Shown: piece by piece, positions 45,847 to 46,914 of the stretch
How positions within the stretch are numbered: position 1 is the stretch's first letter
Layout of the letters: every line of letters starts with the position of its first letter
The notes under the pieces: generated by a model
What the model saw: only the letters and a program-made list of their open reading frames with translations
The model's database searches: none
Told to the model about the DNA's origin: nothing
Program-made: the position numbers and the translations under genes
Origin: a virus
Length of the DNA: 64,000 bases
Strand: one strand, 5' to 3'
Virus record (IMG/VR): IMGVR_UViG_3300027861_000017
Coordinates: 27,136-91,135 of that record

Positions 45847-46221
45847 TTAGTTGGCTCTAAAGCTGACTGATTCATTGTAATATCCGTTACTCTCTCCATA
45901 CCAGCTTATTGTGACAGATCCCTTAATAGTTGATAGCTTGTAAAATGTCCAAGTAAAACAATCTTGATACTCTGGTATATTTACACCTTCTGGATTCACA
46001 TCCGGTTCATTATCAATCTCCTCTGCTATTAATAGGGGAGAATCTATTAAATCTTCTAAATCTCCTACGATATCAACTATATCGCATGATTCACATCAAT
46101 CTTGTTCGTGATATAAATAATATTTCTTGCCAGTGTTAGTAATAAAAAGCATTAGATCATCACCTACGCCACCCTCAATTTTAGCTATCGACCTACCTTT
46201 CAAATCTTCGAATTTATCCAT
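45847..46221 (-). CDS. Candidate selenoprotein: 124-aa phage protein (DUF7448-like) with in-frame TGA at codon 42; alternatively a pseudogene
   Basis: Strong RBS (AAGGAGG); YHEQD-TGA-CESC; frame stays open for 82 more codons with [33 protein letters not shown]. Confidence 0.75.
46058..46092 (-). promoter_or_regulatory. Bacterial SECIS-like hairpin
   Basis: TGCGATAT-AGTTG-ATATCGTA stem-loop with the loop 17 nt after TGA; lower GAATC/GATTT stem. Confidence 0.6.
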
Positions 46222-46914
46222 CCTCATCCTCCTTGTTGTATATTTTCTCACAAAGTAACTCCATCATTTCATGGAAGCCTTTCGATACATCATAATCCTC
46301 AAATGTTATATGCATTACTGGGCCAACTACCGGACCATCTTGTTTACCATCTCTATGAAGCCAAACGCTTATACAATTATCATCATAACTATATGTGAAT
46401 ATTGCGTTTTCTGGTATCATTATATCTAATGTTTTCATCATTACTTTATCTCTTTGTAGTTTAATATTGTTAACATTTTAACATCACGATAACCAACTTC
46501 TTCCTTAAGGTATTCACATTCTATTTGAGTTTCTAGTCTTTTTAAATCCCCATTATTTGATATACTGCCACCATCAAAATAAATTATAGTACTGCCAAAA
46601 TCACTACGCCATGTATCGGAAGAGTAAAAATTAAACGATACGAAGTATTTCATCATTCCCTTTATAATTTCGATAAATTAATTATATCTATATTAGGATA
46701 TCTACTACTAATCTTGTAATAATTATTTCTTAAAAATTCTATTAAATCATCCATATCTTCATTACTTGATATTTCTTTAAAATTAATGACCTCACTCACG
46801 TAGTCCTTTTCTGGGTGCGGCGGCCCTATTGTTCCAGATTTTAAAAGTAATATTCTATAATGCACAAAGTATTTTTTATATTGCATCAATTAACATCTCC
46901 TATTATTTATAAAT

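Follow-up and report, generated by a model that had tools for sequence, protein, structure and literature searches.

A candidate SECIS-dependent selenoprotein of the DUF7448 family in an uncultured phage

An uncultured phage very probably encodes a selenoprotein. The window that we analyzed, a stretch of 64,000 nucleotides, is taken from an IMG/VR virus record of 91,135 bases (positions 27136-91135), whose GC content is 36% (CheckV estimates the completeness of the 91-kb record at 81%). Its minus strand carries a gene of the DUF7448 family with an in-frame UGA at codon 42, and sequence comparisons make it highly likely that this gene encodes a 124-residue, SECIS-dependent selenoprotein in which this UGA is read as selenocysteine (Sec) with the machinery of the host. 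We propose that an mRNA hairpin starting 10 nt past the UGA functions as a SECIS element of the bacterial type and that it would recruit the host SelB-GTP-Sec-tRNA(Sec) complex to the ribosome while the UGA occupies the A site. Translation would then continue through the remaining two thirds of the DUF7448 protein, its conserved C-terminal part. In this model the phage would provide the codon and the hairpin only, and SelA, SelB, SelC and SelD would all come from the host.

The gene spans positions 45847..46221 of the minus strand and consists of 124 codons followed by a TAA stop (45847..45849), with a candidate Sec at residue 42. The original prediction described a gene with a strong ribosome-binding site that is interrupted by a single TGA. 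Read directly, the sequence contains the motif AAGGAGG (46228..46234, minus strand) 6 nt before an ATG start codon (46221-46219), and translation of the minus strand (46221..45847) shows that the TGA at 46096..46098, codon 42, is the sole lesion in a full-length frame. The read-through product matches the Pfam family DUF7448 (PF24240) with an E-value of 4.3e-24 over positions 1-104 of the 104-position profile, and the match extends across the UGA with a score of 85.4 bits (gathering cut-off: 27). The same product matches phrog_2650 (E-value of 2.3e-41), and a search against NCBIfam profiles returned no family. The gene is surrounded by small ORFs without annotation, and a DnaB-like helicase is encoded just downstream of it. 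The end of an upstream 75-aa gene (46441..46214, minus strand) overlaps the start of the DUF7448 gene, such that its stop codon is intertwined with the start at 46221 (ATGGATAA). This arrangement of stop and start suggests translational coupling within a series of small ORFs of early type that precede DnaB.

Using tblastn, we gathered relatives of the gene from contigs of viral and metagenomic origin and from the genomes of species representatives, and we read the codon aligned to codon 42 in each of them. Across 184 loci, this column contained TGT (92 loci), TGC (56), TGA (33), TCT (2) and GGT (1). Cys codons were found in 148 of the 184 loci and the UGA of the window therefore stands, as predicted, in the place of a conserved Cys. 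The family motif given in support of that prediction, H-x-Q-D-C-C-E, proved correct in the alignment. The window, whose motif around residue 42 is H-E-Q-D-U-C-E-S-C, thus reads U-C-x-x-C, with the UGA aligned to the first Cys of D-C-C-E and an extra Cys at position 46 that is found in its lineage. The pairing of Sec and Cys at this column points to the first Cys in D-C-C-E as the residue that reacts. In two loci from genome contigs of Bacillus subtilis and Siminovitchia (L177:5001-5315 and L178:5001-5315), Ser-Tyr replaces Cys-Cys (H-E-Q-H-S-Y-E), which indicates that the thiol pair is not required by every member of DUF7448.

After removal of duplicates, the 33 TGA loci correspond to 23 distinct sequences that are 51–70% identical to the window protein. 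The prediction called for independent homologs combining a TGA with a hairpin, and all 23 carry TGA at exactly the same column. Each TGA locus presents exactly one stop within a single continuous alignment and no frameshift. The contigs bearing these copies range from 30 to 54% GC and their neighbour genes are almost never common to this phage, the exceptions being DnaB at one locus and RtcB at another. Because TGT or TGC is converted into TGA by a single-base change, a nonsense pseudogene or an error of sequencing or assembly has to be weighed. The existence of 23 distinct TGA copies of varied GC content and with mostly unrelated neighbour genes excludes an assembly error and a recent nonsense mutation. 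With the same TGA recovered from many samples in intact frames, and with the selection on the downstream sequence that is reported below, we regard a pseudogene or an error as extremely improbable. A maximum-likelihood tree of the family requires 10–11 changes between Sec and Cys, but a topology grouping all TGA copies into one clade is not rejected (AU test, p = 0.158). We therefore do not claim that the TGA codon originated repeatedly, and its recurrence across the tree may reflect one old event rather than many.

The sequence downstream of the UGA appears to be translated. When the window is compared with its TGA relatives over the part beyond the hairpin, synonymous sites have reached saturation (pS of 0.7–1.0) and nonsynonymous divergence is much lower (pN of 0.11–0.30). 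Values of dN/dS downstream of the UGA range from 0.07 to 0.23, with a median of 0.125 across the 25 pairs with usable dS, and the corresponding value upstream is 0.29. The invariant block W-Y-G-E-S-N-G-Y-Y-x-E is positioned downstream of the UGA, and the codon immediately following the UGA encodes Cys in all 23 copies (TGT in 15 and TGC in 8). Judging from these substitution patterns, the part of the gene downstream of the UGA is under strong purifying selection. A split gene would offer another reading of the same locus: translation would stop at the UGA and the C-terminal 82 residues would be re-initiated, or only the N-terminal peptide of 41 residues would be functional. An in-frame GTG is indeed present seven codons past the UGA in 13 of the 23 TGA copies, but in ten copies, including that of the window, the first 13 codons past the UGA contain no in-frame start (ATG, GTG or TTG), and re-initiation therefore cannot be the general answer. 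Moreover, the codons between the UGA and this GTG are conserved as protein, with an invariant Cys43, and a stop at the UGA would split a single compact domain within the loop that is best conserved. The chance that the gene is split in either manner is, in our view, very slim.

TGA is used as a normal stop codon elsewhere in this phage, as had been stated in the original prediction: it terminates 40 of the 139 long ORFs. We also inspected the sequence flanking the gene at 14 loci, 13 of them TGA relatives, and there 62 of 126 ORFs terminate in TGA. Stop-codon recoding is known in phages, among them the code 15 crAss-like phages, in which in-frame stops similarly occur within real phage genes (PMC9523058). 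In those phages, recoding is genome-wide and dependent on suppressor tRNAs, whereas a single codon of a single gene is concerned here. Treating TGA as a sense codon barely raises coding coverage in our phage (from 0.78 to 0.82), and no domain spans the TGA in any of eight minus-strand frames with an internal TGA that we scanned. The phage encodes five tRNAs (Leu, Ser, Gln, Tyr and Ser), and neither a tRNA with anticodon UCA nor another suppressor tRNA was found among them. Together with the frequent use of TGA as a stop, these results indicate that a genome-wide reassignment of TGA (code 4 or 25) is almost certainly not the explanation.

The region that follows the UGA forms the structure expected for insertion of Sec. 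In the window, the UGA is followed by 9 nt and then by an 8-bp stem (UGCGAUAU/AUAUCGUA) closed by the 5-nt loop AGUUG, such that 17 nt separate the UGA from the loop. This proposed SECIS core, located at 46066..46086 on the minus strand, corresponds to the hairpin with a GU-containing loop that had been predicted at this distance (46086-46066). It is embedded in an extended minimum free energy (MFE) structure (46055..46095, minus strand), in which the lower helix GUGAAUC/GAUUUAG surrounds the core with bulges. The 49-nt stretch has an MFE of −11.3 kcal/mol (z = −3.1), which only 1 of 200 shuffled sequences equals; the core hairpin taken alone has a modest folding energy of −6.1 kcal/mol. All 23 TGA sequences fold at energies between −8.6 and −20 kcal/mol, and nearly all of them present the helix at a common spot, mostly with a GUG or GUU triloop. 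The copies that fit this common helix poorly are L129, L173 and, in part, L140. In the alignment of the 23 sequences, the G at loop column 22 is invariant, and the lower helix is kept in part, with the pairs between columns 8–11 and 34–37 holding in 5 to 16 of the 23 sequences. A search of Rfam at the hairpin returned no family and only chance-level rows.

The helix is also supported by covariation across the same 23-sequence alignment. Compensatory changes are observed at pair 15-31 (CG in 12 sequences, UA in 5 and AU in 2), pair 18-28 (UA in 17 and CG in 4) and pair 19-27 (AU in 15 and GC in 6), and five pair types occur at pair 14-32. In the true register, 75% of the cells are paired, as compared to 25–50% when the 3' arm is slid by one to three columns. 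The covariation score is 0.291 versus 0.162 for shuffled alignments, with none of 500 column shuffles reaching the observed score, and RNAalifold independently recovers the same helix. Covariation of this kind is hard to explain by selection on the protein alone, since it ties a synonymous position (GAU/GAC, Asp) to a non-synonymous one (AUC/GUC, Ile/Val). The TGA copies encode Asp47 and Val49, whereas the Cys copies encode Thr or Ser and Glu at these sites. Comparison of the two sets thus points to a SECIS helix that shapes the sequence of the protein in which it is embedded.

We compared these hairpins to the published consensus of bacterial SECIS elements (bSECIS). This consensus comprises an apical loop of 3–9 nt, an upper stem of 4–16 bp, a distance of 16–37 nt from the UGA to the loop and an MFE of −7.5 kcal/mol or lower, along with a G as the first or second loop nucleotide, frequently followed by G or U (PMC13188914). 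A check of the window against the bSECIS definition had been proposed along with the prediction: with a 5-nt loop, an 8-bp stem, a spacing of 17 nt and −11.3 kcal/mol, the window falls within all of these ranges, and its helix covaries. The same is true of most TGA relatives, in which the spacing is 17–18 nt. The resemblance extends to the architecture of bacterial genes with an in-ORF SECIS, whose prototype is fdhF of E. coli (PMC13188914): in both cases the UGA occupies a position at which homologs carry Cys, and a stem-loop with similar spacing, a small loop starting with G or GU and an MFE below −7.5 kcal/mol lies inside the coding sequence. The phage genes differ from these bacterial genes in that DUF7448 is absent from the listed selenoprotein families, and in that the helix is short (7–9 bp), mostly capped by a GUG triloop, and forces Asp and Val codons. 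A further difference is that the gene of the window resides on a phage genome in which a search for selB, selD and tRNA-Sec detected none of them.

Cys-type members of DUF7448 (PF24240, phrog_2650) are found in cultured phages, such as the Bacillus phages Bastille and Hoody T, and in giant viruses. They possess the same domain, are 47–55% identical to the window protein and share its W-Y-G-E-S-N-G-Y-Y-x-E block, but they present Cys-Cys (Ser-Tyr in L177 and L178) where the window has Sec-Cys and mostly lack the hairpin. We observed a mean folding energy of −9.4 kcal/mol in the 23 TGA copies versus −4.2 kcal/mol in 118 distinct Cys copies (Mann-Whitney p = 5e-10), and the mean number of pairs formed in the same columns is 7.5 of 9 in the TGA set versus 5.4 of 9 in the Cys copies (p = 4e-8). 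The hairpin is, however, not fully specific to TGA: the Cys copies L026, L100 and L119 form a full hairpin at the SECIS position that is as good as those of the TGA copies. A good hairpin following the Cys-Cys motif is found in these three and in L021, L076 and L017, with energies down to −19 kcal/mol in GC-rich genomes. The hairpins of Cys copies may be relics of a Sec ancestry or, alternatively, a codon-level pre-adaptation that eases the evolution of Sec. Finally, one Cys-type copy (L083, 400-762; TGC) is nested within the main TGA clade; although a ten-residue peptide is still kept in it, its hairpin has lost the compensating bases. From its sequence and position in the tree, this copy looks like a recent reversion from Sec to Cys with a decaying SECIS.

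We then considered how the UGA would be decoded. A search of the 91-kb record for selB, selD and tRNA-Sec detected none of them, which implies that decoding would depend on the host. The only match to the Rfam model of tRNA-Sec, at 43464-43547 of the window (minus strand), scored 32.9 bits against a threshold of 47. We rejected it as a tRNA-Sec, because it is a tRNA-Tyr (GTA) with a long variable arm that scores below this threshold. One TGA relative (L162) is located on a 9.6-kb contig that was binned in a metagenome-assembled genome (MAG) of Desulfobacterales with a full selB (389 bits); this contig carries phage genes only and is linked to the MAG by binning alone. Among 401 genomes from the class of this MAG, the gene was present in that MAG only. 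A host that uses Sec would follow from the selenoprotein model, and there is a weak hint that this host is an anaerobe.

The UGA might also be read through without selenium, either by a near-cognate Trp or Cys tRNA aided by the hairpin or by a SelB-dependent tRNA charged with Cys. Sec-like tRNA(Cys) species have been described in some anaerobes. The comparative data speak to continued translation and to the relevance of the hairpin rather than to the residue that is inserted, and the lack of selB, selD and tRNA-Sec in the phage record is compatible with this scenario. On the other hand, UGA alternates with Cys at a single column, which is the classic signature of Sec/Cys exchange, and the spacing and G/GU loop of the hairpin are those of SelB-type SECIS elements. 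In addition, the phage has no tRNA with anticodon UCA, and a TGT or TGC codon would be a simpler solution if Cys were wanted. We consider read-through without selenium to be improbable, and we favor the insertion of Sec by a SelB-dependent route, which we infer from these comparative signatures.

We modeled the protein with AlphaFold (pLDDT of 87, pTM of 0.79) and obtained an all-beta domain in which U42-C43 lies in a loop between strands 33-37 and 46-52. Matches in the PDB were weak: an uncharacterized Neisseria protein (5v77, Z of 5.2) and the polymorphic-toxin immunity protein PIM7 (8owu_E, Z of 5.1). Foldseek matches of the model had E-values of 0.1 or worse. With PDB matches at Z of about 5, no function could be read from the fold. 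Searched against BFVD, the model retrieved nothing but further DUF7448 proteins and unnamed viral ones, encoded by many phages as well as by giant viruses. The latter are viruses of eukaryotes and include mimivirus, Hokovirus, Tupanvirus and Pithovirus, which indicates that DUF7448 spans viruses of bacteria and viruses of protists. In one record (L195:4001-4795; MN364664.1, labelled Xanthomonas phage Xoo-sp15), DUF7448 constitutes the N-terminal domain of a 264-aa protein whose C-terminal 140 residues match no Pfam family. The taxonomy of this record is that of a Bastille-like herellevirus, and it is flagged UNVERIFIED_ORG.

Adjacent Sec and Cys residues are able to form a selenenylsulfide, as in thioredoxin reductase, and the mammalian enzyme carries a C-terminal Gly-Cys-Sec-Gly redox centre. 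The U42-C43 pair most likely constitutes a redox-active or metal-binding centre in which Sec would be a more reactive substitute for the usual first Cys. A CU dipeptide is also carried by a MerB-like selenoprotein (bioRxiv 10.1101/2022.07.06.499078). The MerB-like protein resembles the phage protein, as does thioredoxin reductase, in that Sec adjoins Cys and that a selenenylsulfide or metal binding is possible. Both differ from it, since the order is U-C in the phage protein and the pair sits in a loop inside an all-beta domain that is unrelated to them.

Genomic context links some DUF7448 genes to the RNA ligase gene family RtcB. In two distinct loci (L018:331-1911 and L134:2718-4286), DUF7448 precedes RtcB as an N-terminal fusion, and it lies directly beside RtcB in three others (L048:1746-3366, L051:2941-4688 and L084:906-3059), the last of which carries a TGA copy. 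Of 40 viral records with a DUF7448 gene, 6 contain an RtcB that scores over the family cut-off, and 11 of the 15 near-complete records lack RtcB. This phage possesses its own RtcB outside the window (G000:C1:23188-24264, equivalent to L196:689-1765). When the flanking ORFs of 148 loci were clustered, no conserved neighbour emerged other than DnaB, at six loci, and RtcB, at a few. The fusions and adjacent genes suggest that DUF7448 is functionally linked to tRNA or RNA repair. The active-site Cys of RtcB is sensitive to oxidation and is guarded in humans by an oxidoreductase (PMC12263435), and it is conceivable that DUF7448 serves as a redox helper of RtcB. A complex prediction for the adjacent RtcB and DUF7448 proteins of L048 gave a score of 0.00; run without controls, this score counts neither for nor against binding. 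In a more specific scenario, RtcB would have DUF7448 as a small partner that is redox-active or handles metals, and phages of Sec-using hosts would have upgraded the reactive Cys of DUF7448 to Sec via a SECIS tuned to the SelB of the host. We put this forward tentatively and regard it as rather unlikely.

Apart from those of cells, selenoproteins have been described in two poxviruses, and a phage family would therefore fill a gap in the known selenoproteome. The viral examples are the glutathione peroxidases of molluscum contagiosum virus and fowlpox virus, both viruses of eukaryotes (PMC8310308). As proposed here for the phage, these viral genes rely on insertion of Sec by the host, and the SECIS of fowlpox virus also lies within the coding region (PMC8310308). 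They differ in being captured cellular genes with a eukaryotic SECIS, whereas DUF7448 is a virus-wide family with a bacterial-type SECIS. In full-text searches of the literature, we encountered neither a selenoprotein encoded by a phage nor a paper that mentions DUF7448 by name, and the motifs of DUF7448 were not found in the supplements that we examined of the GOS selenoproteome study. Some huge phages have been noted in passing to carry predicted tRNA-Sec genes (PMC10747093), and a 2026 review of the prokaryotic selenoproteome leaves phages and viruses unmentioned (PMC13188914). The candidate described here most likely extends a known recoding mechanism to a protein family and to a genomic setting, that of a virus of bacteria, which are both new for it.

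If this interpretation is correct, a UGA codon and its SECIS have been kept in phages over deep divergence, which would mean that phages exploit the SelB pathway of their hosts. Such genes would be systematically lost from phage annotation, because gene callers split or miss them. The Sec/Cys site offers a concrete starting point for the function of the virus-wide DUF7448 family. Should the tentative role as a partner of RtcB also hold, DUF7448 would be the first family of selenoproteins from viruses that infect bacteria, and the presence and shape of its SECIS would be a readable marker of host range. More generally, since a selenoprotein gene of this type implies a host that uses Sec, it would provide a new marker for predicting the hosts of uncultured phages.
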